A stretch of 64,000 nucleotides of DNA from Vulcanimicrobiota bacterium (GCA_050250895.1 JBFWNU010000002.1:224001-288000); one strand, 5' to 3'. Counted from the stretch's first letter, positions 51,751 through 64,000 are shown. A program made the numbers and translations. Notes: generated by a model from the letters alone, not told the origin.

Positions 51751-53091
51751 GGGGCGCTGGACTTCCATGGTCGCCTGATGGGAACCGGCACCCTCGATTT
51801 CGTCGAGCGCTTCGATGACCCGGCGGGCGCTCGAGTAGCGGTTGGCCGGGTTCTTGGCCAGCAACACCTTGATGACCCCCTCCAGGCCTTCGGGCAGCCC
51901 TTGGACGACCAGTGGCGGCGGGGGCTCGTTGAGCTGCATCTTCAGGAGGGTGCGAGTGTCCTCGCTAAAAAACGGCGGCTTGCCGGCCAGCAACTCATAG
52001 AGAATGACTCCCACGCTATAGAGGTCGGTGCGCCGATCCACTTCGCTGCCGCTGGCGTGAATCTGCTCGGGGGCGATGTATTGCGGGGTTCCGAAGGCCT
52101 GACCGGTCTTGGTGACGGCCGTGATATCGCTATGGCGGGCCAGACCGAAGTCGAGAATCTTGACCTGATTGCCCTCGACCATGATGTTCTCGGGCTTGAG
52201 GTCGCGATGGACGATACCCTTTTCGTGAGCAAAGTCGAGCCCCTCGAGCAATTGGCGGATGAAGGGATAAACCGACGACCAGGCCTGACCCTCGGGGCGC
52301 ACGTATTTGCGCAGGGTGCTGCCCCTCACGAACTCCATGATGCAATAGGCCAGACCGGGCTGTTCTTGATAGTCGAAACTGCGCGGAAAGGTGGGGTGTT
52401 TGAGTTGGCTCAGCAGCTTGAACTCGCGCCGGAATCGATCCAGCGACACCCCGCTTTCTTCATCCAGGTAGATGACCTTGGCCGCAAAGTCGCCCACGTC
52501 ATTTTTGACGCGATAGACCGCTCCCATGCCGCCCTGTCCCAGGCGGGCCTCGACCCGATAGCGTCCCAGATTCTTGCCCACCATGGGATCGCCGCTGGTG
52601 TCGAGCATGGTCGACAACACCTCGAGCTGGGCGGCGCCGCGGTGGGCCTGTTTGCGCCAGCGCAAGGTAGCTATCAGGCCCGCGAGCAGCACCAGCAGCC
52701 CGCCCAGAAATAGTCCGGGATGGGCTGTGAGCAGATCGACGGCCGCAACCATCGGCGAATCGGCCGGCAGACGATAGCTGCCCTGGGGCGGCAGGCGACC
52801 CCGGGCCCAATCCTGAGCGGCCACGGTTACCCGCAGCTCGGCGTGGTTCGGAGCTTTGAGCACCAGCTCGCCGGCGGCATACTGGGTAGGCTTGCCATCG
52901 GGGCCCCGCAACACCGGGGGAGAGCAGCGGATGGGTTCGCCCGAACGACCCAGAAAGCTCAGTCCGGTTGGCGTGTCGAGATAGACTTCGCAGGCTGGAA
53001 AAGCCGCGACCGAGAGTTCGATCTCGTCAGGTACGGCCCGAGCCGGATAGGCCAAAGCCAACCACAACACCAGCAGGGCCAGAGGTCTCAT
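51742..53091 (-). CDS. Membrane Hanks-type Ser/Thr protein kinase
   Basis: Signal peptide MRPLALL, TM, LGQGGMGAVY, HRDLKPEN, DFGLAR, GTPQYIAPEQ; ATGA overlap with the upstream gene. Confidence 0.95.
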   Translation of the reverse strand: MRPLALLVLWLALAYPARAVPDEIELSVAAFPACEVYLDTPTGLSFLGRSGEPIRCSPPVLRGPDGKPTQYAAGELVLKAPNHAELRVTVAAQDWARGRLPPQGSYRLPADSPMVAAVDLLTAHPGLFLGGLLVLLAGLIATLRWRKQAHRGAAQLEVLSTMLDTSGDPMVGKNLGRYRVEARLGQGGMGAVYRVKNDVGDFAAKVIYLDEESGVSLDRFRREFKLLSQLKHPTFPRSFDYQEQPGLAYCIMEFVRGSTLRKYVRPEGQAWSSVYPFIRQLLEGLDFAHEKGIVHRDLKPENIMVEGNQVKILDFGLARHSDITAVTKTGQAFGTPQYIAPEQIHASGSEVDRRTDLYSVGVILYELLAGKPPFFSEDTRTLLKMQLNEPPPPLVVQGLPEGLEGVIKVLLAKNPANRYSSARRVIEALDEIEGAGSHQATMEVQRPSD

Positions 53092-53720
53092 TGGTGGTTG
53101 CGCGGATGGATCAACTTCACGGCTCGTAGGTGCTCCCTGGAGGGGCCATTTTGATGTTCGTTGGCGGGCACCTCCAACTCGACCTCGATGCGAAAGAGGG
53201 GGCCGGGCTCGAGGCTGACCCGAAAATCGGTCACCTGCTCGGCCAGCAGATGTCCGTTGACCAGGTTGGGGCCGGGAAGCACCGCCTGCAGCACCTGGTC
53301 GCATTCGGCCACCGTCATGGCCTGAACATCGTCCTGGGTAGGAGCAGCCGCCGCGGCGGACGGGCTCGAGGTAGTGTAGAGTCGTCCGCTGCCCGCGTCC
53401 CAGACGACACACTCCCAGTGGTCCAGCCAGCGCGGAGCACCAGGGAAAGCACCGGCCTCGAAGGGATGAACAGCCAGAATCCCACCATCGGGACTGGTGC
53501 CGCGATAAAACGTCATGCCCGCAGCCGAGGAGTTGAATAACATTTCTTCGACCTGATGCATCGCCGCTTGCAGTCGGGCCGCGGCCAGACTCTCCTGGGT
53601 CTGCTTCTGGGTCAGCTTGGAAGTCGACACAAGCACCTGGCTGACCACCACCATGACGATGGCGGCCAGGCCCAGTCCTACCACTGCTTCGATAATGGTC
53701 CAGCCGCCTCGGCGACTCAC
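53088..53720 (-). CDS. Prepilin-type (PilW-like) minor pilin
   Basis: RRGG|WTIIEAVV plus hydrophobic helix. Confidence 0.8.
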   Translation of the reverse strand: MSRRGGWTIIEAVVGLGLAAIVMVVVSQVLVSTSKLTQKQTQESLAAARLQAAMHQVEEMLFNSSAAGMTFYRGTSPDGGILAVHPFEAGAFPGAPRWLDHWECVVWDAGSGRLYTTSSPSAAAAAPTQDDVQAMTVAECDQVLQAVLPGPNLVNGHLLAEQVTDFRVSLEPGPLFRIEVELEVPANEHQNGPSREHLRAVKLIHPRNHQ

Positions 53721-54133
53721 CGCGGAATCCTCGTCAAGAGTCCCTCGGCCAGCGCCTGGTGCGAGCCGCTGTTGTCGCCCCAGCTGAGTCGAACCCGCAT
53801 CCCGCGAATGTCGTCGTCACCGAGCCCGGTAGCGATGCCGTTACCGCCCAGGCTATAGGTCTCGAGTTCGATCAAATAGGGCGTTCCATCGCTGAGTTGG
53901 CCCGAGATGTCGGGCAGGGGACCCAGCGGCAACAGCGATGGCGACACGGCTTGATAGTGTTCGAGGGTGCTCTGAGCCACGCAGTTGGCGTCATAGCGGG
54001 CCCGACCCGTCCGGCCGCCGCGGCCGGTTTGAGCCGTCATGGCAGCGACTAGCAACAGCACCAGCCCAAGCAGGCCAATGGACACGACCTGTTCGAGCAA
54101 GATGGCCCCCAGTCGTCTTAGAGATCTCGCCAC
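53717..54133 (-). CDS. Prepilin-type (PilV-like) minor pilin
   Basis: RLG|AILLEQVV plus hydrophobic helix; similar to 8056-8448. Confidence 0.75.
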   Translation of the reverse strand: MARSLRRLGAILLEQVVSIGLLGLVLLLVAAMTAQTGRGGRTGRARYDANCVAQSTLEHYQAVSPSLLPLGPLPDISGQLSDGTPYLIELETYSLGGNGIATGLGDDDIRGMRVRLSWGDNSGSHQALAEGLLTRIPR

Positions 54134-56046
54134 GACAGGATCCTGATACGGTCGGCCAGATTATAGAACTGGCTCAGATCGAGTTGCCACATGATGACCA
54201 TCGGCACCAGCGGGCCGGTCCCGGTCCCGCTGACTACTGCCTCGCCCAGGGCCCGGCTGTTGGCGTTCCAGGTGGTGACGAACTCGGGCGCGGTGTCCAC
54301 TACGTGCTGGGCAGCCGCGTCCAAGAAGGCGTCGGTGGCTGCGTCAGCATTGGGCGATCCCCAGTCGTTGGCCACCGACACCAGGGCCGCACGGGCGCTG
54401 GCCCGGTCGGTGAAATCGCCCAGGAAGGCGTCCTGCCAGCCCTCGCCGTTGGCGTCGACAGTATCGGCGGGTCCGGCTGGATTGGGATTGTTGATGCGAA
54501 TGCTTCCCAGCGTGATGGGGTCGGCCGGCATCGGGCTGGGCACGCCGATCTCGTACCACGGTTCGGCCGCCGTGGGAGGATGAGTGACCGGATAGCCGTT
54601 TGGGGGCGTGGAGTAATCCTCGCGCGGCCCGTTCATGTTGGCGGTGAAGAGGACTGGAGCGGTGCTACCGGTGCTGCCGACGTCCTGGGTAATTGGAGCC
54701 ACTCCAAATCCGTAAGGGTCCCCCATCGTCATCAGGTTGGCATGGAGAGTGGGGGGCAAGGGCGTCAGCCCGCCGGTCGGACCCGGCACCATGGTCGTCA
54801 CGGGTACGCTGATCGAGCCGATGTCGGCGCTTTCCACCAGCGTCGACTCTTCCAGCTTCACGCTGCCGTTGGGGTTGGGATTGTTGACCACCACCGACCC
54901 GGCCACGTTGGTGAAGCGGGCCAGCAGGTTTCCTTCGGTGTAGAGCAGTCCGCGAAAGTCGGCTTCCTGAACGTCAGAGGTGCCCTCCAGATTGATGTTA
55001 CCCCCGGCCACCACGGCCGTGCCCGACGACCCGGTCAAAGCGCCCCCGCCGCGCACCGTCACCGGACCGGTGGCGATGACCGCGCCGCTGCCACTTAAGC
55101 CGCCATCGACGGTGACACCGCCGTCGACATAGACGATACCTCCGTCAAGGGCCAGGCCTCCGCTGATGGTAAGATCGCCCGAGCGGCGGTGAAAGCCGGA
55201 AAGGGTGGTCGCCCCCAGCGACCCGCTCGAAATGACGCTGACCCCGGGCCGGCTGGCCGTGTCCAGAGTGGCGATGTCGATCTGAGGCAAGGGCACCAAA
55301 TCGGCCATCGACCGTTGCTCGCCGCGAACCTCGACGCCGGGAGCAACGTCCACGGTCCCTCGCGACTGGGCGTCTCCCTCGATGATGGTGGACGTTCCCC
55401 CGATCAGCTTAAGCGACGGTTCGGTCTGGTCCGGAGCATTGGTAACGATATGGCCGGGCTCTCGCTGGTTGGGAGGCACGGCAAAGCCGCCGTTGAGGGC
55501 GGTCGGGTCCGACACCCCAAAGACGTGCAGTTTGTCGCCCGTGATCGAGACGCTCGAAGAGACGACGTAGGGAAACCTGGGAACATGCAAGATGACCTCG
55601 AGCTTGTGCTCACGGCCACGGTAGCGTCCGACTCCCACCAGGTTGGCCGTCTGGGCTCGGACCACCGTGCTGCCCCAGCCCGGCCGGTCGCCTCCGCCGT
55701 TGAGGTTGTTGACGCTCAGGGGTACTCCCAGGCGTCCGGCCTCGCCAGAATCCAGCGCCACCGCCCCGATGGCGCCGGGATAACTGGGTAGACTGACCTC
55801 GACGCTGGGAAGGCTGCTGCCATCCAGGAGGGGGTCCTGCAAGAGCCGCGCGACGGTCGCCTGAACGGCGCTCTCGGCCAGTCGGCGGGCCCCGTCGCGG
55901 GCGTTATCCTGATGAGTGAGGCCAAGTTGGAACAAAGTGGCAGCGCTGGCCACCGCCAGCACTCCCACCACCAACACCAGGATCACCAGCACGTTGGATA
56001 GCGTTCCCCGTGTTCCCCAACCTGTCAGGCGCGTTCCCCCAAGCAT
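54118..56046 (-). CDS. PilX-like large minor pilin, paralog of 8438-10315
   Basis: Shared motifs LAESA, NNL, VPRFPY, LDGGIVYVDG, GLLY, LSQFYNLADRIRILSW; TATAAT 7 nt before the ATG. Confidence 0.75.
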   Translation of the reverse strand: MLGGTRLTGWGTRGTLSNVLVILVLVVGVLAVASAATLFQLGLTHQDNARDGARRLAESAVQATVARLLQDPLLDGSSLPSVEVSLPSYPGAIGAVALDSGEAGRLGVPLSVNNLNGGGDRPGWGSTVVRAQTANLVGVGRYRGREHKLEVILHVPRFPYVVSSSVSITGDKLHVFGVSDPTALNGGFAVPPNQREPGHIVTNAPDQTEPSLKLIGGTSTIIEGDAQSRGTVDVAPGVEVRGEQRSMADLVPLPQIDIATLDTASRPGVSVISSGSLGATTLSGFHRRSGDLTISGGLALDGGIVYVDGGVTVDGGLSGSGAVIATGPVTVRGGGALTGSSGTAVVAGGNINLEGTSDVQEADFRGLLYTEGNLLARFTNVAGSVVVNNPNPNGSVKLEESTLVESADIGSISVPVTTMVPGPTGGLTPLPPTLHANLMTMGDPYGFGVAPITQDVGSTGSTAPVLFTANMNGPREDYSTPPNGYPVTHPPTAAEPWYEIGVPSPMPADPITLGSIRINNPNPAGPADTVDANGEGWQDAFLGDFTDRASARAALVSVANDWGSPNADAATDAFLDAAAQHVVDTAPEFVTTWNANSRALGEAVVSGTGTGPLVPMVIMWQLDLSQFYNLADRIRILSWRDL

Positions 56047-56072
56047 GGATCGAATTATAGCATGGCTTTGGG

Positions 56073-56969
56073 TCAGTTTTCCGGCATCCATCCCCACTTA
56101 GGGTCATTGCCGCCAGCCCCGACCACCACGTCGACCACGGCTCCGTTGGGAAACTTCAGCTTGTCGAGACGCTGCGGGTGCTCGAGCAGTTGCACTCCGG
56201 GAAAGCGCTCCTGCAGTTCGGGCATCGCCTGGCGGACACCCTCGTTGGTCGGCGGATACTTGCTCAAGATAGCTATCACCGCGGCTCGGTCGATAGAGTT
56301 GCCCAGCGGGGTAGCCTTCGGGCCCTGGGCCGTGCTCGGGGCGAAGCTGGCCGCACCGGACGAGGCGTTGCCGTTGGAGTTGCCCCCGGTCTGGCCGGTG
56401 GCCGCCGCCCATTGCTTGGAGTTGGCCGTGGGTTGGGCCGTGCCTTTACCCTCGGAGCCCCACCACCAGCCGGGGTTGTCGCTGCCAGCGCCGCGGACCA
56501 CATCGACCCATTCATAGCCGACCTCGGTCTTGACCTGAATCCGGTCGCCCTCGACCCCGACCACCTCCAGACCGGCCGCCCGCAACTCGGGCAGCATGGC
56601 CGTCAGCAGTTGTTCGGCTTTGGCCTTGTCGCCCTGCACGCTGTCGAGCTTGTAGTGCTGGGCCACCCGCCCGAAGATGTACTTGGGCGTCTTATGGTCA
56701 GGATTGTTCAGCTTGTTGGAGTCGTAGCCCTCGAGCGGCACCGTTTCGTCGGTGCGAAAGGCGTTGCCAGAAGCGGGCTGGCCCAGCGCCTCCGAGAGCA
56801 CCTCGCGTACACCGGTGTTGGTGGTAAAAGACACGGCGCGACTGGAGAAGGCTCCTTCGTTGAGGGCCTCGGTGCTGGCGTTGCTGTTCTGATTGAACTG
56901 GGGAGCGCTGTCCACGCGAGTGAAGGTGCGGGGCTGGCTCTCTCTGAGGGTGGCTGATGAGACGTTCAT
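56073..56969 (-). CDS. Hypothetical protein with a duplicated Trp-containing domain
   Basis: GGAGG SD; VDVVRGAGSDNPGWWW and VDVVVGAGGNDPKWGW. Confidence 0.75.
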   Translation of the reverse strand: MNVSSATLRESQPRTFTRVDSAPQFNQNSNASTEALNEGAFSSRAVSFTTNTGVREVLSEALGQPASGNAFRTDETVPLEGYDSNKLNNPDHKTPKYIFGRVAQHYKLDSVQGDKAKAEQLLTAMLPELRAAGLEVVGVEGDRIQVKTEVGYEWVDVVRGAGSDNPGWWWGSEGKGTAQPTANSKQWAAATGQTGGNSNGNASSGAASFAPSTAQGPKATPLGNSIDRAAVIAILSKYPPTNEGVRQAMPELQERFPGVQLLEHPQRLDKLKFPNGAVVDVVVGAGGNDPKWGWMPEN

Positions 56970-57160
56970 TCCTGGATTCCTCCTGCTTTACCACCACTCT
57001 AGCCGGGGCGGGATAGACCAGGGTTAGAAACGCGCCTTCGGTGTAAATTGCTCTGGTCAGGGACGCTTTGGCTTTTCAAACCCCCGCCGAGAGGTGTAGG
57101 GAGTGTGTGATAGACAGGCCGGGCCGGAGGTGGCATACTATCACATCATCCGGAGATGGG

Positions 57161-57190
57161 GACCACGTCGAACCTGACATAGCTGCGCGC
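57161..57190. repeat. Direct repeat copy 1, dif/att-like
   Basis: gaccacgtcgaacctgacatagctgcgcgc matches 59884-59913. Confidence 0.7.
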
Positions 57191-57267
57191 GAGAGGAGCG
57201 CCCCAGGGGCGAGGCTCAGCGACCCCATCGACGGGAAAGAGACCGGGTCACTTTCCGCCGCCGCAAC

Positions 57268-58326
57268 TTAGCCGGCTCGAGCCCATTCCAGCAGCCATTC
57301 CAATAGCCCGCTCTCTCGCTGGCGTTCGAGATCACGTCCGCGACGGTCGCGCCAGACCAGCCCCTGGGGAGCAACCCCGCTCACTTGCAGGATCCCTTTG
57401 TGGATGTTCTTGTGGCAGCGCGAGCACACTACCACCAGATTCTCGGGCACCGTCGGTCCGCCCCGACAGTAAAAGACTACGTGATGCACGTCGAGCCAGA
57501 GTCGATTGGGGCAACCCGGACAAGAGCAGCGATAGCCATCCCGCCGCAGCACTGCCCGGCGCTGGGCGGCAGTCGCCTGACGCTTGCTGGGATTGAACCT
57601 CAACCGTCCGGCCAACTGCAACTTCGACTCGCCCGGACACACGTGTGTCTGCATTGCCAGCGCCTCGACCGGAGCGGCCAGGTCCTGGGTTGCCTCAACC
57701 TTGAACTGCTCCACCTGCCCGCCCAGAAAGTCCGCCAGGATCAGCTCGAACGCCTCGGCCGGGTTGACCGTGCCGCCATTGTCTCTCGAGATCACGGCCA
57801 CGGCTCGCGACCACAGCTCGGACACTTCAGGAGCGACTCGAAAACGAAGCTCCACCTCTTCAACCATGTTCAGGGCCGCCTCGGCCGGAGTGTCACCGCG
57901 GTTGGCCCCGGCCACCAGACGAGCCAGCCGGTGGGGTTTGAGGCGCACTGCCAGGTCAAGCCAGGCCTCTTCGGTCTCGGGCGTCACGATGCGGGTGACC
58001 ACACGCAGATTGGACCAGCAGATTCTGTTCTCTTCGCAGGCTTGGGAAAACAGCGGCAGCTCTTCGAGATGGCCGGCGATCCGCATCGAATCTAGTGCCT
58101 CGCGCTTCTCGACTTTGATGAGCCGGGCGAAGTGGATAGCCGAATGGCAGCCGGTCTCGGCGCAAAAATCGGTGCGCTCGATAGCCAACAGACATCGCCC
58201 CAGCAGGATGCGAGTCAGGGCCAGGGTGTTGGCCAGGCGACGGATCACCCTTTCCAGCCGCTCGTGAGGGAGCTTGCTCAAGTTTTCGACGGTCCAAAAT
58301 TCGCGTTGCTTATCATCGGTAATCAT
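57268..58326 (-). CDS. DUF222-like HNH endonuclease
   Basis: RRDGYRCSCPGC..LDVHHV..GGPTVPENLVVVCSRCHKNIH; start at MITDD. Confidence 0.88.
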   Translation of the reverse strand: MITDDKQREFWTVENLSKLPHERLERVIRRLANTLALTRILLGRCLLAIERTDFCAETGCHSAIHFARLIKVEKREALDSMRIAGHLEELPLFSQACEENRICWSNLRVVTRIVTPETEEAWLDLAVRLKPHRLARLVAGANRGDTPAEAALNMVEEVELRFRVAPEVSELWSRAVAVISRDNGGTVNPAEAFELILADFLGGQVEQFKVEATQDLAAPVEALAMQTHVCPGESKLQLAGRLRFNPSKRQATAAQRRAVLRRDGYRCSCPGCPNRLWLDVHHVVFYCRGGPTVPENLVVVCSRCHKNIHKGILQVSGVAPQGLVWRDRRGRDLERQRESGLLEWLLEWARAG

Positions 58327-58661
58327 GAATCCATGATAGTCTTTGCCCCCCTTGTTCGTCAAAGATTCGATGCGGCTATAACCCTTATTTCATAGGCGAT
58401 TGCGCATTTTCTGAGCGATGATTATTCGAGCTTTTCGAGGCCAAAATGAAGATTTCTTCAAGCTCGGCTGTTCAAGTGCCTGAGGGGGTCCTGGAGAGGC
58501 TGTCACGAGCAGTCTAGGGGCCAGGCTCCTCCGAGGCGGTTGGGCGGCCGCATCTGAAAAATTTTTGACACACGTGTGCGCGGAGGGGGTTAGGGTCCTC
58601 GACCCGAGCCGGACGCGAGCGACGACCGTCCGGGCCTCGAACGGGGCGACTTCCAAGGCCG

Positions 58662-59466
58662 AAGACCTACGTGGGTGGCCTGGGCGTCCACGATGACACC
58701 GCCGACACCGGCTTGCTGTAGATGCGACAGCGGCACTACGACCCGACCTTGGCCAGGTTCTTGAGCCGGGACCGGGTGGCGAATCTGAATCGTTATGTCT
58801 ATGCCTTGGACAATCCGATTGGTCGAGTTGACCCAGGAGGGCTCGACCCAGTTACCACTGCCGCCGGCGTTGGACGGGCTCTCGCCCAGGGTTTAGCACC
58901 ATTGAGACCTGCATTGAAAGCAGGCAAGGACACTTTCGTGGCCACCCCTGGGCCTCCACAAGTTAGGCTTGGAGCAGCAATCTTCGCGTCCCTAATTGTT
59001 CTTAGCTTGGAAACAATGGCGTCGGCTCCCCCACCTAGCGGGAGCGTCTCTCCTGACCCAATGACCGCCACGGTGACATGTTCTCAGAGTCCTTAAGAAA
59101 ACAGGGGCGGCTTTCGTCGGAAGAGAGGGACTGTCCCAGACCATTTGCACTAGGACGTTTCCAGTTCCTTGAAGATTTCGCTCGGCGAACGAATTCGGAT
59201 TGGCTCGGATGGAGCCCCGGTGCCGCATGGAAGGCGAAAGTCTTCAGCAAGCTGAACGACCCCGGCAGAAGATATACTTCAACATGGAGGAAGCGACTGA
59301 GCAGGACTTAGTCAGGGCACTTGAGACGAAGCCCAGCAAACGAAGCGGTCTCCAAACTGAGCTATACTGGATCAACCAGCACTACGATGATTGGGCCGAT
59401 CGTCTCTATTGGTATAACGGTGACAACTTGTTCGAGGACGGATACAACGAAATGGGGGAAATATGA
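58662..59466 (+). pseudogene. Orphan RHS core + C-terminal toxin remnant
   Basis: TYVGGLGVHDDTADTGLL*MRQRHYDPTLARFLSRD..NRYVYALDNPIGRVDPGG (premature TAG); the toxin region appears to continue across two frameshifts. Confidence 0.75.
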
Positions 59467-59849
59467 GTCTAAAGAGAATCGGTCACGCCGCCAACGAAAC
59501 CTTGGAGGACTTCTATGTCAAGTGCGGCTTCAGCCAGATGGTTGAATTTGTCAAATCCTTAGACAGGAAGCTTGGTAGCAGGAAAGTCTTCTGTCTCACA
59601 TCAGTTAACGACCTCGTCCTTCTAAGTGAACCCGACCACCTTTCCCCCTGGCGGGTTTTTATCTCCCCGCAAGATCCAGTCCCCGGGATACAGGTATCAT
59701 ATTGGATGCCCGCTAGTTTGGCTCCGTGGCAGGGAGCCCGGGTGACTGGCTTGGCCGATAATGTAGAGGATGCGGTTGAGATGACAATTCTGTCAATGGC
59801 CCATTCCGGGGGCTGGGCTGAGCAAGGACTACAAGGGAGAAGGGCGTGA
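59463..59849 (+). CDS. Putative immunity protein
   Basis: 128 aa, ATGA-coupled to the RHS C-terminus; lower GC. Confidence 0.6.
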   Translation: MSLKRIGHAANETLEDFYVKCGFSQMVEFVKSLDRKLGSRKVFCLTSVNDLVLLSEPDHLSPWRVFISPQDPVPGIQVSYWMPASLAPWQGARVTGLADNVEDAVEMTILSMAHSGGWAEQGLQGRRA

Positions 59850-59883
59850 CCGTGGCTGAAAGGGGCGCAATTCTCAATTCTCA

Positions 59884-59913
59884 GACCAAATCGAACCTGA
59901 CATAACTGCGCAC
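59884..59913. repeat. Direct repeat copy 2, dif/att-like
   Basis: gaccaaatcgaacctgacataactgcgcac; reverse strand contains TTATGTCAGGT. Confidence 0.7.
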
Positions 59914-60357
59914 GGGGGGCCACTTCGCCGTCGCCGCACCTTCATTCGGCAGCCTGGTATGCCGAATTCCGCAGTGGGGCTGCCGAATCGCCGACCCGCC
60001 CCCCGGCAGAGGCTGTTTGGGCTGGCCGAGGCCCGCGGCTCAATGGGCTGGCCTGGTGGCCAAAAGCGAAGGCGCAGCCCCATCGCCGCCAGCGGAAATT
60101 TCGCGAGCACTCATGTGGTGGCCGCGGCCGAGCTGCCAGGGACGCCCCCGTCCTCCGGGGGATTTCTGAAAAAAAGTTGCGAGCCGCGAGAAAATACTCA
60201 TCTCGCGACATCGCCGACAAACTTCCCGTCAGAGCCGCGCGAGAGCTCCGGAGCCGGCTTTTTTCAGGATTTCTGACGATCGTTTCATCGAGCCGCTTTC
60301 AAAGCCCGCACATCATCATCTGGGCACCCAAGAAATCCTATAACCACGCCGTTTTTA

Positions 60358-60400
60358 GCTGTTCGTAATTTTGCTCGAACAGCCCTCGCCTCGGTAGAAT
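60358..60400 (+). promoter_or_regulatory. Inverted-repeat operator over the promoter of a leaderless HNH gene
   Basis: GCTGTTCG-N10-CGAACAGC; TTGCTC-N18-TAGAAT-N6-ATG. Confidence 0.55.
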
Positions 60401-60406
60401 AGGCGT

Positions 60407-61525
60407 ATGAAACCTCTTCAAGAATACACCCGCGAAGCCCTCACGCATCTCGAGCCCGAAGCTCTCCATCACATGGCCTGCCGCGCTTCCCTCGGCCTGG
60501 TCATCCACCGCATCCTCCTGGGCCGCTGCCTGCTGGCCCTTCAATCCACCGGTCGCTACCAAGACTTCGGTTGCAGCGGCCCCATCCACTACGCCATCCG
60601 CCTGCTCGGAGTGACCAAGAAGGAGGCCAACGCCTGTCGCCGCGTGGCCCGCCAACTCGAAGAACTGCCGCAGCTCACGGCCGCCGCCGAGGCGGGAAAG
60701 ATCGGCTGGGCGAAGCTGCGCGAGATCGCCAGCAAGGCTACGCCTGAAACCGAGAAGCTCTGGCTCGAGCTGGCCTCACAATACTCCACCTCGGTCATTC
60801 GCCGCCTCGTGGCAGCCACTCTCAAAGGAGGTCTGCCGGGCGAGCTGCCGCCGACCAAGGTCGAGAGCGAGGAGATCACCCTGCACCTCGACCCCGAGAC
60901 GACCGAGTTGCTGAAGCTGGTCTTGCATTCCCTCTCCCTCGGACGGGGCCGCAAGGTCGAGCTAAAGGAAGCCCTGGCCATCCTGCTGGCCCAGCATTTG
61001 CAGACCTCACCGGTCACCGAGAAGGACATCGAGGCGATACGCGCTCGAGCAGCCGCGGTGGCGGCCTCGCAGCAACGCAAACTGGCCGGGCCCATTCAGA
61101 GGGCGCACGAGTTGGCCCAGGAGCTGGGACTTCGTTCCCCGGGGGACGAGTGTTTCATGGCTACCACCGCCGTTGACGGGGACGAATGCCCCGGCAACCC
61201 CGAGGTCGAGCTCGCCCGTCGAGCCAAACCCCACTGGCGGCTCAGCTTCAACCCCAATGCTCGCGGGCTCACACCCGCCCAAACCGAGGTCCTCAAGGTT
61301 CGCGACTGCTACTGCTGCCAAACCCCCGATTGCCCCAATCACATCTGGTTACAATCCCACCACATCCGCTTCTTCGCCCTGGGCGGCCTGACCGTGCCGG
61401 CCAACTTGATCTTCCTGTGCACAGCCTGCCATCGCAACGTCCACGACGGCTTTCTTTTCATCGAGGGAACAGCCCCCGACGGCCTGACCTTCCGCGACCG
61501 CGAGGGCCGTCAATTCGAGCGATAA
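60407..61525 (+). CDS. DUF222-like HNH endonuclease, paralog of 57268-58326
   Basis: ILLGRCLLA, LEELP, TPETE, RDCYCCQTPDC..HHI..GGLTVPANLIFLCTACHRNVH. Confidence 0.88.
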   Translation: MKPLQEYTREALTHLEPEALHHMACRASLGLVIHRILLGRCLLALQSTGRYQDFGCSGPIHYAIRLLGVTKKEANACRRVARQLEELPQLTAAAEAGKIGWAKLREIASKATPETEKLWLELASQYSTSVIRRLVAATLKGGLPGELPPTKVESEEITLHLDPETTELLKLVLHSLSLGRGRKVELKEALAILLAQHLQTSPVTEKDIEAIRARAAAVAASQQRKLAGPIQRAHELAQELGLRSPGDECFMATTAVDGDECPGNPEVELARRAKPHWRLSFNPNARGLTPAQTEVLKVRDCYCCQTPDCPNHIWLQSHHIRFFALGGLTVPANLIFLCTACHRNVHDGFLFIEGTAPDGLTFRDREGRQFER

Positions 61526-61892
61526 CGCGGATCGTTTTGCCAGGGCCGAACGTGGGATACTACGAGCGTGACGAGCTCGTTAGCCTCAGGTCCGCTGGTG
61601 AGACCGAAACCATGGGATACCCCTTCGATGCTCAAAGCATCTCTCGGGAAGAAGTCACCTGGGCGATCCGGTTCGCAGAATGCCTCGGAGCTCTCGTGCA
61701 GCTGAGGTCGATTCAGGGGGAGTCCTGGAGTCCATCTCCTCTATGACATCTTAAGAGACGGAGAGCCTGTGAGTCTCCGCTGGCTAGAAAACGGGGCTCG
61801 CTAATCCCGGGACTGAAACGGCCAAGTACAAAACAAGCGCCAACCTCCCGCGTCCCCCGCGGAACTCCGCGGTTGCCCCAAATGCCAGGCCC

Positions 61893-62306
61893 CTAGCCGA
61901 AGATCCCATCCTCGATCAGGGGACCCTGATACCTGTTCAGTTCTTCGAGATTATCGTCGGTAACTTGCAAGAGGTCGACCAGCATGGCCGAGCCCTCTTC
62001 GATCAACTCGAGGCCGGCCGCCGCGACTTGACCTCCCTCAGCCAAATCCCGCAACTGGCCCAACCCTTCGTAGATGGCCTGCAGCGCAGCGGCGGCGTCT
62101 TGCACGAGTTCGACCTCGTCCACATGCTCGTCGCCGGGAACGAGCTGTTCCAGGCGAGCGTGCCAGGCCTCGAGGCGGGCCTCCATCTGCTCGAGCCGCT
62201 CTAGAAAAACCGCTGGCGTGATGGCGCCAGCCTGAAGGTCCGCTACCAGGCGCCCGGCCTGCTCGTGCGGACTGTCGGGAAAACGCATGCGATACCTTTC
62301 GAGCAA
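61893..62306 (-). CDS. Acidic helical hypothetical protein
   Basis: 137-aa ORF; start uncertain. Confidence 0.55.
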   Translation of the reverse strand: MLERYRMRFPDSPHEQAGRLVADLQAGAITPAVFLERLEQMEARLEAWHARLEQLVPGDEHVDEVELVQDAAAALQAIYEGLGQLRDLAEGGQVAAAGLELIEEGSAMLVDLLQVTDDNLEELNRYQGPLIEDGIFG

Positions 62307-62383
62307 ATTTGATCACAGTCATGTTCGCCACCCGACTTGAAGATTACTCTGACATCCTCAGGTTGTCTGAGGAGGTAACCCCC

Positions 62384-63007
62384 ATGAGAAAAATACGACT
62401 GATGGTGATGAGCCTGATCGTGGCTCTCACCCTGCCGCTCTACGCGGCTCCACTGTTTCCCGACGTTCCCGACGCCCATTGGGGCAGGGACGCGGTGGCG
62501 GCTTTGGCCGCCAAGGGTCTGGTTGAAGGCTACCCCGACGGTACCTTCAAGGGGGACCGGGCCGCGAGCCGCTGGGAAGTGGCCATGATCGTGGCCCGTC
62601 TGCTGGCAAAATGGAGCAGGCCCACGCTACTTTCGCAACCAAAGCCGAGCGGGTTATGACGTGACCGACGACTTCGCGGTGCGGGCGGGTTACACCCAAC
62701 TCGATGTCTTCGGCCATATCGACCCGCTGGGCGTATACAACAACTACGCCGCCACCATCGGTCAAACCCGATTCAACAACTGGGATATCACCCAGGGCAT
62801 CCCTGAACTCGGCTTCGACTGGAACATCTCGGACAAGACCACCTGGAGCCCGACCTTCAAGTACTATGACGAGACCGACCACCTTGCTAGCAGGGTGACT
62901 CCGTCCCCGACGGTACCGGCTCTCAACGTAGCCCTGGGCCCGCAGTCGCGCACCCGTTCAGCTATGAAGGCGTCCAGGTGATGTCGACCTTCTCGCTCAA
63001 GTTCTAG
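62384..63007 (+). pseudogene. SLH-domain outer-membrane beta-barrel (OmpM-like) remnant
   Basis: Signal peptide + FPDVPDAHW..GLVEGYPDGTFKG..RWEVA; frameshift near 62610; jump to a beta-strand C-terminus ending VMSTFSLKF*. Confidence 0.75.
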
Positions 63008-63018
63008 AGGGTGGACCC

Positions 63019-63051
63019 AGGTCCGGCCGGGCAACCGGTCGGGCCTCTTTT
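63019..63051 (+). terminator. Intrinsic terminator
   Basis: aggtccggccgg-gcaa-ccggtcgggcct-ctttt. Confidence 0.75.
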
Positions 63052-64000
63052 ATTTGCGCGCGTCGGCGGGCAGGTGGGTCTTGAGCTGGCGATAGAGATC
63101 GTCGGCTCCCTCGAGGCTGGCCGGGTCGAGGTTCATACCGGGTGTGAAAGCGAGAAACGGCCGGTCCTGACCCAGCCCGATACCCCCGTGCAGGCCGCGG
63201 AAGTCGCCGGTCGAGAAGTCGATCTGACCGTCACGGTAGTTTTCGCCGTAGACGATGATGTCGCCGCCGTTGGGCCGGTGGGCCTGACGGTGCAACTGGC
63301 GGGCCAAAAGCTCGGTGGGCCCAAAACGGGCCAGGGGATCCTCGCCCTGGATCTTGACCCCCTCTGCGTCGACCTTGACCGAGCCCTCCTTGCCCTCGAT
63401 CAGGGTGGCCTGACCGGCTCGCGTGACCACCAGGGCGACGCCCTGATGTTGCTTGAGGCTTGCCACGACGCCGGCCGGCAATTGGTCGCGCTCGAGCAGG
63501 CCCGGTAGAGCCGTGAAATAGAGATTGGCTCCCGAGCCGAAATCGAGCGAGAGGACCGTCTGGCCGCTCAGCTTCTCGGTCAGCTCCTGGATGGATTGAC
63601 CGTAGAGGTCGTCGAAGTGATAGGCGAAGACCTGGCCGTGGTCAGCCAGCAGGGCCATCTGATAGGGACGCTCGGCCCGGTCCATGCCTTCGAAGAGCAC
63701 CTTCAGGTCGCGGTCGACATACTTGAGCGAATCGAAAGCGATCGGTCCCGGCCCATGAGGATGGGACAAGCCATCGAAGTGGGCCAGGTCGACATACATC
63801 ACCGGCTCGCCCCGCTTCATTTCGGCGGCCATCGCGTGGACGGCCGCGTCGGAGGCAAAGGCCTCCTTGACGGCGTCTTTGACGATGGTGCCCAGAGGCC
63901 GGTGGGTCTGGTCGCGCAGTCGCCACTCGCTCCAGATTCGCCGGCTGATATGGACGGCTGTCTGGGCGGCGTGGGCGGGATGGGCCAACAGGAATTTGCC
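63050..64000 (-). CDS. Alkaline phosphatase superfamily protein (partial, 5' end outside window)
   Basis: YVDL..FDGLSH..GP, LLADHGQ, GLHGG..QDRPF metal motifs. Confidence 0.8.
   Translation of the reverse strand, partial: GKFLLAHPAHAAQTAVHISRRIWSEWRLRDQTHRPLGTIVKDAVKEAFASDAAVHAMAAEMKRGEPVMYVDLAHFDGLSHPHGPGPIAFDSLKYVDRDLKVLFEGMDRAERPYQMALLADHGQVFAYHFDDLYGQSIQELTEKLSGQTVLSLDFGSGANLYFTALPGLLERDQLPAGVVASLKQHQGVALVVTRAGQATLIEGKEGSVKVDAEGVKIQGEDPLARFGPTELLARQLHRQAHRPNGGDIIVYGENYRDGQIDFSTGDFRGLHGGIGLGQDRPFLAFTPGMNLDPASLEGADDLYRQLKTHLPADARK

Follow-up and report, generated by a model that had tools for sequence, protein, structure and literature searches.

Two divergently oriented HNH nuclease genes, here called HNH-1 and HNH-2, were analyzed in a 64-kb window (the whole stretch of 64,000 nucleotides under study), which forms part of a 9.5-Mb Vulcanimicrobiota bacterium genome available in 17 contigs. 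In the explanation favored here, each gene is probably a single representative of a self-contained unit of the DUF222-HNH type, 1.35-1.4 kb or so in length, which has its own private control sites and has been spread and homogenized by nuclease-stimulated recombination. As read from the aligned copies, the unit has a subfamily-specific palindrome and an A/T tract at its left end. These are followed by ~250 nt of non-coding sequence containing conserved boxes, a sigma-70-type promoter placed 5-6 nt before the ATG, and an open reading frame (ORF) at whose stop codon the unit ends. The two genes were read directly from the sequence as follows.

57268..58326, minus strand: HNH-1 coding sequence of 352 aa, running from the ATG at 58326 to the stop at 57268; a helical DNA-binding-like domain at the N-terminus, then a linker and a Zn-HNH nuclease domain, according to domain searches and nine copies.
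60407..61525, plus strand: HNH-2 coding sequence, 372 aa; DNA homology between copies stops at the stop codon.

The two proteins were 37% identical across 366 alignment columns (E 1e-71). A previous reading of the window, made from the sequence only, had described them as DUF222-like HNH proteins. The HNH part of this description was confirmed, as both proteins passed the Pfam cut-off for HNH (PF01844; 29.3 and 21.7 bits, cut-off 21.4). A DUF222 match was seen in HNH-2 only and at a score below the cut-off (PF02720; 18 bits against 24.4), with no match for HNH-1. Relatives carrying PF02720 were 24-26% identical, and two of these (P0024 and P0027) contained both PF02720 and PF01844 and shared conserved N-terminal columns such as ATPETE. 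The His, Asn and Cys residues of the HNH motif, including four cysteines, were invariant or nearly so in 21 sequences.

Of the 13,717 open frames in the genome that reach a length of 200 aa, 46 were identified as family members in a profile search. Based on upstream regions and identity, the members were assigned to five subfamilies, in good agreement with the multi-copy, apparently selfish HNH family that the sequence-only reading had proposed. The subfamilies were the following.

HNH-1 subfamily: 9 copies at 94.5-100% protein identity (one without the 5' region) and a partial copy; leaderless geometry.
HNH-2 subfamily: 5 full copies at 84-100%, one at 62% and several broken copies; leaderless geometry.
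HNH-3 subfamily: 3 copies; leaderless geometry.
HNH-4 subfamily: about 17 copies of ~420 aa each; leader with GGAGG.
HNH-5 subfamily: 4 copies; leader with GGAGG.

Family matches were found in 26 of 41 related genomes, among them all of the 15 further genomes (15/15) that belong to the same taxonomic family; many of the copies in related genomes were located at contig ends. The closest named relatives belong to metagenome-assembled genomes (MAGs) labelled Vulcanimicrobiota (Eremiobacterota) and UBP9/Xenobia, and Myxococcota, Actinomycetota and other MAGs contained multi-copy relatives that are more distant. No more than 30 relatives were retrieved when 5.8 billion proteins were searched. With 46 copies in five subfamilies of graded divergence, the genome offers an unusually rich natural series, in which the limits of the unit, its promoter and its private sites are exposed.

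The limits of the unit were mapped from the points where homology between copies ends. Between HNH-1 copies, a DNA identity of 90-93% begins ~300 nt before the ATG and extends ~107 nt past the stop codon. The ~107-nt 3' tail is the start of a ~250-nt repeat, the R-unit, and was excluded from the gene unit because the R-unit also occurs without the gene, its homology starting at the stop codon. Alignment of 6 R-unit loci with HNH-1 and 6 without it placed the junction at the stop codon, and a separate alignment covered 20 R-unit copies. HNH-2 copies were 78-85% identical from about position -257 to the stop codon, beyond which the flanks differed. From these limits, both units span from a left end about 255-300 nt upstream of the start to the stop codon. 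The earlier suggestion that the flanks hold element ends was thereby borne out, and the long upstream stretches without a credible ORF were found to be real. Upstream of HNH-1, about 285-300 nt are conserved at 90-93% with frame-breaking indels, and upstream of HNH-2 about 257 nt are conserved without a conserved ORF. Terminal inverted repeats and target-site duplications were looked for and none were found. The non-coding parts in the window are as follows.

58327..58610, minus strand: conserved non-coding 5' region of HNH-1, with its left end near GTCGAGGACCCTAAC; homology reaches 58626 in some copies.
60164..60406, plus strand: non-coding 5' region of HNH-2, with conserved islands ACATCATC (60310-60317) and a 12-nt box (60342-60353).
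57161..57267, minus strand: truncated R-unit, starting directly past the HNH-1 stop codon.

Both genes were preceded by exactly the promoter strings that had been proposed for them.

58333..58362, minus strand: HNH-1 promoter-like site, TTGACG (58362-58357), 18-nt spacer, TATCAT (58338-58333), 6 nt ahead of the ATG.
60371..60400, plus strand: HNH-2 promoter-like site, TTGCTC (60371-60376), 18-nt spacer, TAGAAT (60395-60400), 6 nt ahead of the ATG, from sequence reading and copy alignments.

In a consensus promoter scan, which gave 4 sites in the region compared to 0.9 +/- 0.9 in shuffled sequences, the HNH-1 site was the top promoter-like site of the region (10/12). The same arrangement of -35 hexamer, 18-nt spacer, -10 hexamer, 6 nt and ATG was kept in 8/8 HNH-1 copies with a 5' region, in 10/10 aligned HNH-2 copies, including two at only ~62% protein identity, and in 3/3 HNH-3 copies. 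The invariant promoter hexamers of HNH-2 stand out against the variable spacers because the HNH-2 copies have diverged (dS 0.69). Six loci in other genomes (L036, L075, L079, L081, L082 and L083) also had a -10 hexamer 5-6 nt before the ATG. Three other loci (L077, L078 and L080) had a leader with GGAG instead of the leaderless layout, and subfamilies 4 and 5 had one with GGAGG. In the leaderless group the -10 hexamer falls within the 5-8 nt before the start that are taken to mark a leaderless promoter, a Shine-Dalgarno sequence is lacking and both features are kept among homologues. That promoters of the HNH-1 and HNH-2 type would give leaderless mRNA is thus well supported by comparison.

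The CGAACA motif described previously was found to overlap the -35 hexamer of both genes, and at HNH-2 it is half of a palindrome, as had been claimed.

60358..60383, either strand: operator-like palindrome GCTGTTCG-N10-CGAACAGC, overlapping the HNH-2 -35 hexamer, from sequence reading and a genome count.

The core of this palindrome, TGTTC-N12-GAACA, occurred at 22 sites in the genome, of which 11 were at HNH-2 or HNH-3 promoters or remnants of these; the remaining 11 were within the background of other spacings (3-13 sites). At the HNH-3 promoter, the full palindrome occurs together with the same TTGACG hexamer as in HNH-1, which itself retains one half-site. This intermediate shows that the promoter regions are homologous, and together with the conserved flanks it agrees with what the sequence-only reading had expected of the paralogs. 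Co-regulation of the family, claimed in the same reading, was only partly upheld: HNH-2 and HNH-3 share the palindrome, but HNH-1 has a half-site only and subfamilies 4 and 5 have none, and a GGAGG leader instead. A second candidate control site not described before is the 12-nt box AACCA[AC]GCC[AG]TT, for which 20 of 20 genomic sites were upstream of family genes. Its spacing was fixed, at 61-65 nt before HNH-2 starts and 89-90 nt before HNH-4 starts, or the site was at an HNH-2 remnant. The box recurred in three other genomes (L036, L043 and L082), and in subfamilies 1-3 an ATCATC island is present about 22 nt further upstream of the box position. The palindrome overlapping the -35 hexamer and the upstream box are therefore described here as putative family-private control sites.

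A further feature that had not been noticed before is that subfamilies 1, 2 and 4 each have a palindrome of their own that is present twice in the unit, at the left end and inside linker-coding DNA. In the window these are located as follows.

58567..58580, either strand: HNH-1 left-end palindrome, with the plus-strand sequence GACACACGTGTGCG and an A/T tract after it.
57636..57649, either strand: HNH-1 internal palindrome GACACACGTGTGTC in linker-coding DNA.
60150..60163, either strand: HNH-2 left-end palindrome GTCCTCCGGGGGAT, degenerate, followed by a T/A tract.
61134..61147, either strand: HNH-2 internal palindrome GTTCCCCGGGGGAC, with one mismatch, in DNA coding for the low-confidence linker.

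Across the copies of each subfamily the pairs were:

HNH-1 subfamily: internal GACACACGTGTGTC at +677, perfect in 9/9 copies and in 2 fragments; left-end CGCACACGTGTGTC at -254/-255 in 7/8 copies.
HNH-2 subfamily: internal GTCCCCCGGGGGAC at +727, perfect in 7 copies; left-end version in 8 copies, located between -252 and -258 and having no more than 2 mismatches.
HNH-4 subfamily: internal CTTCCAGCTGGAAG at about +858 and the same palindrome at about -300; both in most of the 17 copies.

The internal palindrome of HNH-2 had one mismatch in the window copy and in one other copy. The internal palindromes lie in DNA encoding a linker predicted with low confidence in the structure model. Of 42 loci in other genomes, 5 had the same perfect palindrome, 10 nt or longer, both upstream and within the gene, and for three of these it was located at +693 to +754. 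When the pairs were permuted 200 times, such loci numbered 1.72 on average and never more than 4, compared to the 5 observed. The HNH-4 palindrome CTTCCAGCTGGAAG is also a dispersed repeat with 122 genomic copies, 54 of these within 3 kb of HNH-4 genes. No dispersed palindrome family was found for subfamilies 1 and 2 outside the units themselves. Directly upstream of the HNH-4 gene at C3:231233, a tandem array (C3:228100-230850) consists of over 15 repeats ~125 nt in length, all of which begin with CTTCCAGCTGGAAG. The internal palindrome of HNH-2 (61131-61150) also scores as a terminator-like hairpin within the gene, which raises the question whether attenuation could give a product with DNA binding only.

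A number of rearranged copies were joined near these palindromes. At C2:473561-474120 the left-end palindrome of an HNH-2 unit (C2:473571) adjoins a ~190-nt fragment of a second HNH-2 gene; the fragment ends at the internal palindrome of this second gene, and an R-unit hairpin is located just upstream. In two deletion derivatives of HNH-1 (C1:3626541-3627200 and C2:478864), the left-end palindrome region runs directly into the coding sequence; the join lies ~40 nt before the internal palindrome in one derivative and at +21 in the other. It was considered whether the DNA left of the 5' palindrome in the window is decayed coding DNA from the left of the internal palindrome. This was rejected for the window copies, as their local alignment scores of 51 and 49 lay within the range of shuffled sequences (47 +/- 6 and 41 +/- 5); a different copy, C2:473571, does have such an origin. 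No support was obtained for a module between the palindromes that moves by itself, with strongly correlated identities of the parts before and after the internal palindrome (r 0.97 in subfamily 2 and 0.81 in subfamily 4).

Both proteins are under purifying selection, with a dN/dS of 0.10 for HNH-1 (21 pairs) and 0.11 for HNH-2 (10 pairs). Upstream divergence was lower than dS in both cases (0.10 against 0.22 for HNH-1; 0.51 against 0.69 for HNH-2). Identities of the two gene halves were uncorrelated among HNH-1 copies (r -0.04), and this mosaicism fits gene conversion.

In an AlphaFold model of HNH-2 (mean pLDDT 81), the N-terminal domain was helical and was followed by a long helix, a linker without order and the HNH domain. 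The HNH part matched McrA-type enzymes and IscB. Sequence searches of the PDB matched the HNH domain only, with none for the N-terminal domain, and the PADLOC defence-system models gave just weak matches to the HNH domain. In structural comparisons of the predicted model, residues 14-146 matched the DNA-binding domains of ParB (Z 9.7, rmsd 6.3, 133 residues aligned), Spo0J (Z 8.9, rmsd 3.1, 107 aligned) and KorB (Z 7.3-7.0; at 7.3 rmsd 4.1, 110 aligned), but the domain is helical, and these Z-scores are below the level that is safe for such folds, so that a chance match is possible. Foldseek gave probabilities of 0.89-0.99 for the N-terminal domain with E-values of 0.28-0.47, all above 0.07. 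The model is thus suggestive, not proof, of a ParB/KorB-like DNA-binding fold, a feature new to the present analysis. KorB and ParB bind palindromes (OB and parS, respectively), and KorB represses promoters from sites located at them or far away. The simplest reading would be that the unit's own ParB/KorB-like domain binds the palindrome at the -35 hexamer and the box, and that this self-binding would keep a dangerous nuclease at a low level. Concerning the mode of spread, we infer that units may spread and homogenize within the genome via nuclease-stimulated recombination, as intron-less homing or gene conversion, and that the repeated DNA on either side could serve as homology arms.

The paired palindromes allow a more specific and clearly more tentative proposal. 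Possibly, the palindrome of each subfamily is recognized by its own ParB/KorB-like domain, and the pair shuts off the promoter by looping or as a roadblock and directs cuts by the HNH domain, leading to gene conversion and to spread to sites with palindromes or repeats. If true, this would give an HNH family a partnership of the REP/RAYT kind and would open a first way into the mechanism of elements of the REP13E12 type. Regardless of this proposal, the palindromes, the box and the operator are concrete candidates for sites that the protein binds or cuts.

The uncertain fold match is one of several points that weigh against self-contained, self-controlled units. The -35 hexamer of HNH-2 is poor, and the site was missing from the consensus scan because this hexamer fits just 3 of 6 consensus bases. 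The unit as described leaves the internal, in-gene palindrome unexplained. The right junction, between stop codon and R-unit, is precise in the 6 filled and 6 empty loci, but the left flanks of these loci differ, so that a precise insertion event is no more than putative. No syntenic empty site was found in 8 relatives searched with the flanks 53000-57150 and 61800-64000, of which the right flank mainly matched a multi-copy conserved segment in these relatives. Finally, it is conceivable that HNH-1 was passively multiplied along with duplications of Rhs cassettes.

The last point leads to the alternative that survives best, namely that the genes are passive repeats that do not move by themselves and became numerous as the repeat-rich regions around them underwent segmental duplication and gene conversion. 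The flanks of HNH-1 (R-unit and Rhs core-end) are themselves repeats, the units lack terminal inverted repeats and target-site duplications, and the co-divergence of gene halves in subfamilies 2 and 4 is also what passive copying would give. The edges of the unit, though, are sharp and identical in copies with differing flanks: the 3' flanks of HNH-2 copies diverge right past the stop codon, and the Rhs fragment beside the copy at C1:3570517 is cut elsewhere. Passive multiplication also does not fit well with nuclease motifs that are intact and dN/dS values that are low in all copies, nor with the HNH-2 unit whose palindrome adjoins part of a second HNH-2 gene. Passive repeats were therefore considered unlikely compared to self-contained units.

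Both window copies were found to sit at junctions of orphan Rhs toxin cassettes, a location not recognized earlier. The cassette in the window consists of the following parts.

58656..59096, plus strand: orphan Rhs core-end fragment (with an in-frame stop) and C-terminal toxin-like tail; TIGR03696 Rhs_assc_core, 42 bits, cut-off 32.5.
59200..59849, plus strand: two small overlapping ORFs of 88 and 128 aa in the position of an immunity gene; no family match.
59819..59947, minus strand: internally deleted R-unit closing the Rhs cassette.

A 36-nt direct repeat (57161-57196 and 59884-59919) is part of the two R-units. Throughout the genome the cassette order is Rhs core-end, tail, small ORFs and R-unit, and a full rhs gene of 2,200 aa with RHS repeats is present elsewhere in the genome. 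HNH-1 is antisense, between an R-unit and the following core-end, and HNH-2 is sense, upstream of a core-end. Of the Rhs core-end matches, 13/23 had a copy of the HNH-1 or HNH-2 family no more than 6 kb away, and there was no such match near subfamilies 3-5. The orphan Rhs fragments beside HNH-1 begin at the same point in 9 loci, forming a conserved 5' arm of the cassette. An antisense R-unit, 160-250 nt long and ending in a covarying hairpin and the motif GCGTTTCAG, makes up a likewise conserved 3' arm. Judged by their sequences, the two arms look like built-in homology arms for cassette exchange. A tyrosine-recombinase-like ORF (C2:7811-8599, L163) between two Rhs cassettes has only the C-terminal recombinase box (Pfam 26.7 bits, cut-off 27.1). 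It was rejected as a general partner, as it looks like a remnant and has only 2 genomic copies.

The placement at Rhs junctions raises the question of whether the nucleases influence the turnover of toxin cassettes. In its strongest form, the nucleases of subfamilies 1 and 2 would be domesticated helpers that cut cassette junctions, whereby orphan toxin/immunity cassettes are swapped into the expressed rhs gene. The location of HNH-1 and HNH-2 copies between the R-unit of one cassette and the next core-end, in a fixed orientation for each, is in line with this, and so are the shared start point of the fragments adjoining HNH-1 in 9 loci and the strong purifying selection on the genes in all copies. 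A helper function is nevertheless rather improbable. Subfamilies 3-5 (about 25 copies) have no Rhs nearby, many cassette junctions have no HNH gene, the family is widespread outside Rhs contexts in other phyla, and insertions are also simply tolerated by repeat arrays.

The sequence-only reading had also suggested damage-inducible control of the LexA type, as GAAC/GTTC half-sites are typical of several LexA boxes. The 350 nt that precede each of the four lexA candidates and recA contained no TGTTC/GAACA palindrome. One lexA candidate carried GAAC-N15-GTTC, which has another orientation and spacing. The site counts gave no sign that the motif is shared by unrelated repair genes, with 11 of 22 sites at HNH promoters and the rest at background level. 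Selfish nucleases under SOS control, with LexA on the GTTCG/CGAACA palindrome and DNA damage switching the genes on, would explain the resemblance of the half-sites to LexA boxes, but this is very unlikely given the motif-free upstream regions of lexA candidates and recA, the restriction of half of the sites to family promoters, the single half-site at HNH-1 and the lack of the palindrome in subfamilies 4 and 5 and in relatives. On these sequence comparisons LexA control is not supported, and nothing links the HNH units to the DNA-damage response. The fourth lexA-like candidate (C7, upstream of 361651) has two palindromes, CAGACATTTGTCTG and CAGACAAATGTCTA, just before its start. These are likely the operator of this LexA-like repressor itself and unrelated to the HNH motif.

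DUF222-HNH repeats of the REP13E12 type are common in several phyla and are left out of many genome analyses. PMC10589994 lists REP13E12 together with HNH/DUF222 as repetitive elements, and a 2026 preprint places REP13E12 loci among the most frequently gene-converted loci of M. tuberculosis and describes these repeats as lacking a defined function (PMC13061034). Among the titles and abstracts returned by literature searches on these elements, none dealt with their mechanism. As far as these sources describe them, REP13E12 elements are likewise dispersed units of ~1.4 kb around one ORF with a DUF222-type N-terminus and a C-terminal HNH motif. The present family is a dispersed multi-copy ~1.4-kb unit with conserved non-coding flanks, and in this the units resemble the mycobacterial repeats and appear to be the same kind of thing. 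They differ from REP13E12 in that the two are only distant sequence relatives, DUF222 scores are below the cut-off here, and the closest named relatives are Vulcanimicrobiota/Eremiobacterota MAGs instead of mycobacteria. The present units are also not known to serve in prophage attachment.

Other known systems were similar in part. Free-standing HNH homing endonuclease genes spread by intron-less homing, as in T-even phages. They share with the present units a single nuclease gene with its own promoter, placed between genes, and flanks that, at least on the R-unit side here, are homologous in filled and empty sites. In contrast to these, the candidate targets here are repeats within one genome, and the cognate palindrome is kept inside the unit and not destroyed by insertion. 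Compared to KorB and ParB, the possible likeness is confined to the predicted fold of residues 14-146 (Z 7.0-9.7); there is no N-terminal CTPase domain and no match at the sequence level, and the domain is fused to a nuclease. As in REP/RAYT systems (REPINs), each subfamily has its own palindrome, and that of HNH-4 (CTTCCAGCTGGAAG) is dispersed, but the enzyme here is an HNH nuclease and not a Y1 transposase, and subfamilies 1 and 2 are without dispersed palindromes. When NCBIfam and the PDB were searched by sequence, IscB had the HNH domain most similar to the one described here. Unlike IscB, the proteins have no RuvC domain, and the scores of 41 and 26 bits are far below the 175-bit cut-off.

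IscB is accompanied by an omega RNA (HEARO), and an associated RNA in the flanks had been suggested for the HNH genes as well. None was detected with Rfam or by folding of the HNH-2 5' region. Positions 56900-62000 of the window gave 0 Rfam matches at E-values up to 1, neither HEARO nor any other family, and eight R-unit loci gave only sub-threshold noise resembling microRNAs and frameshift elements. For the HNH-2 5' region, RNAalifold returned an energy of -9.98 kcal/mol, to which covariation contributed practically nothing (about 0), and folds of the apparent hairpin segment in the individual copies had z-scores from -2.0 to +1.1, which gives no support for a structured RNA.

Two further repeats were observed near the genes. 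A REP-like hairpin, TTCGGCAGCC...GGCTGCCGAA, at 59943-59993 belongs to a dispersed family with some tandem arrays, for example at C3:334587-335271. In the right flank, an SLH-domain-coding segment (62445-62650, in the ORF 62309-62659) is repeated in the genome and was found at 75-83% DNA identity in 8/8 relatives.

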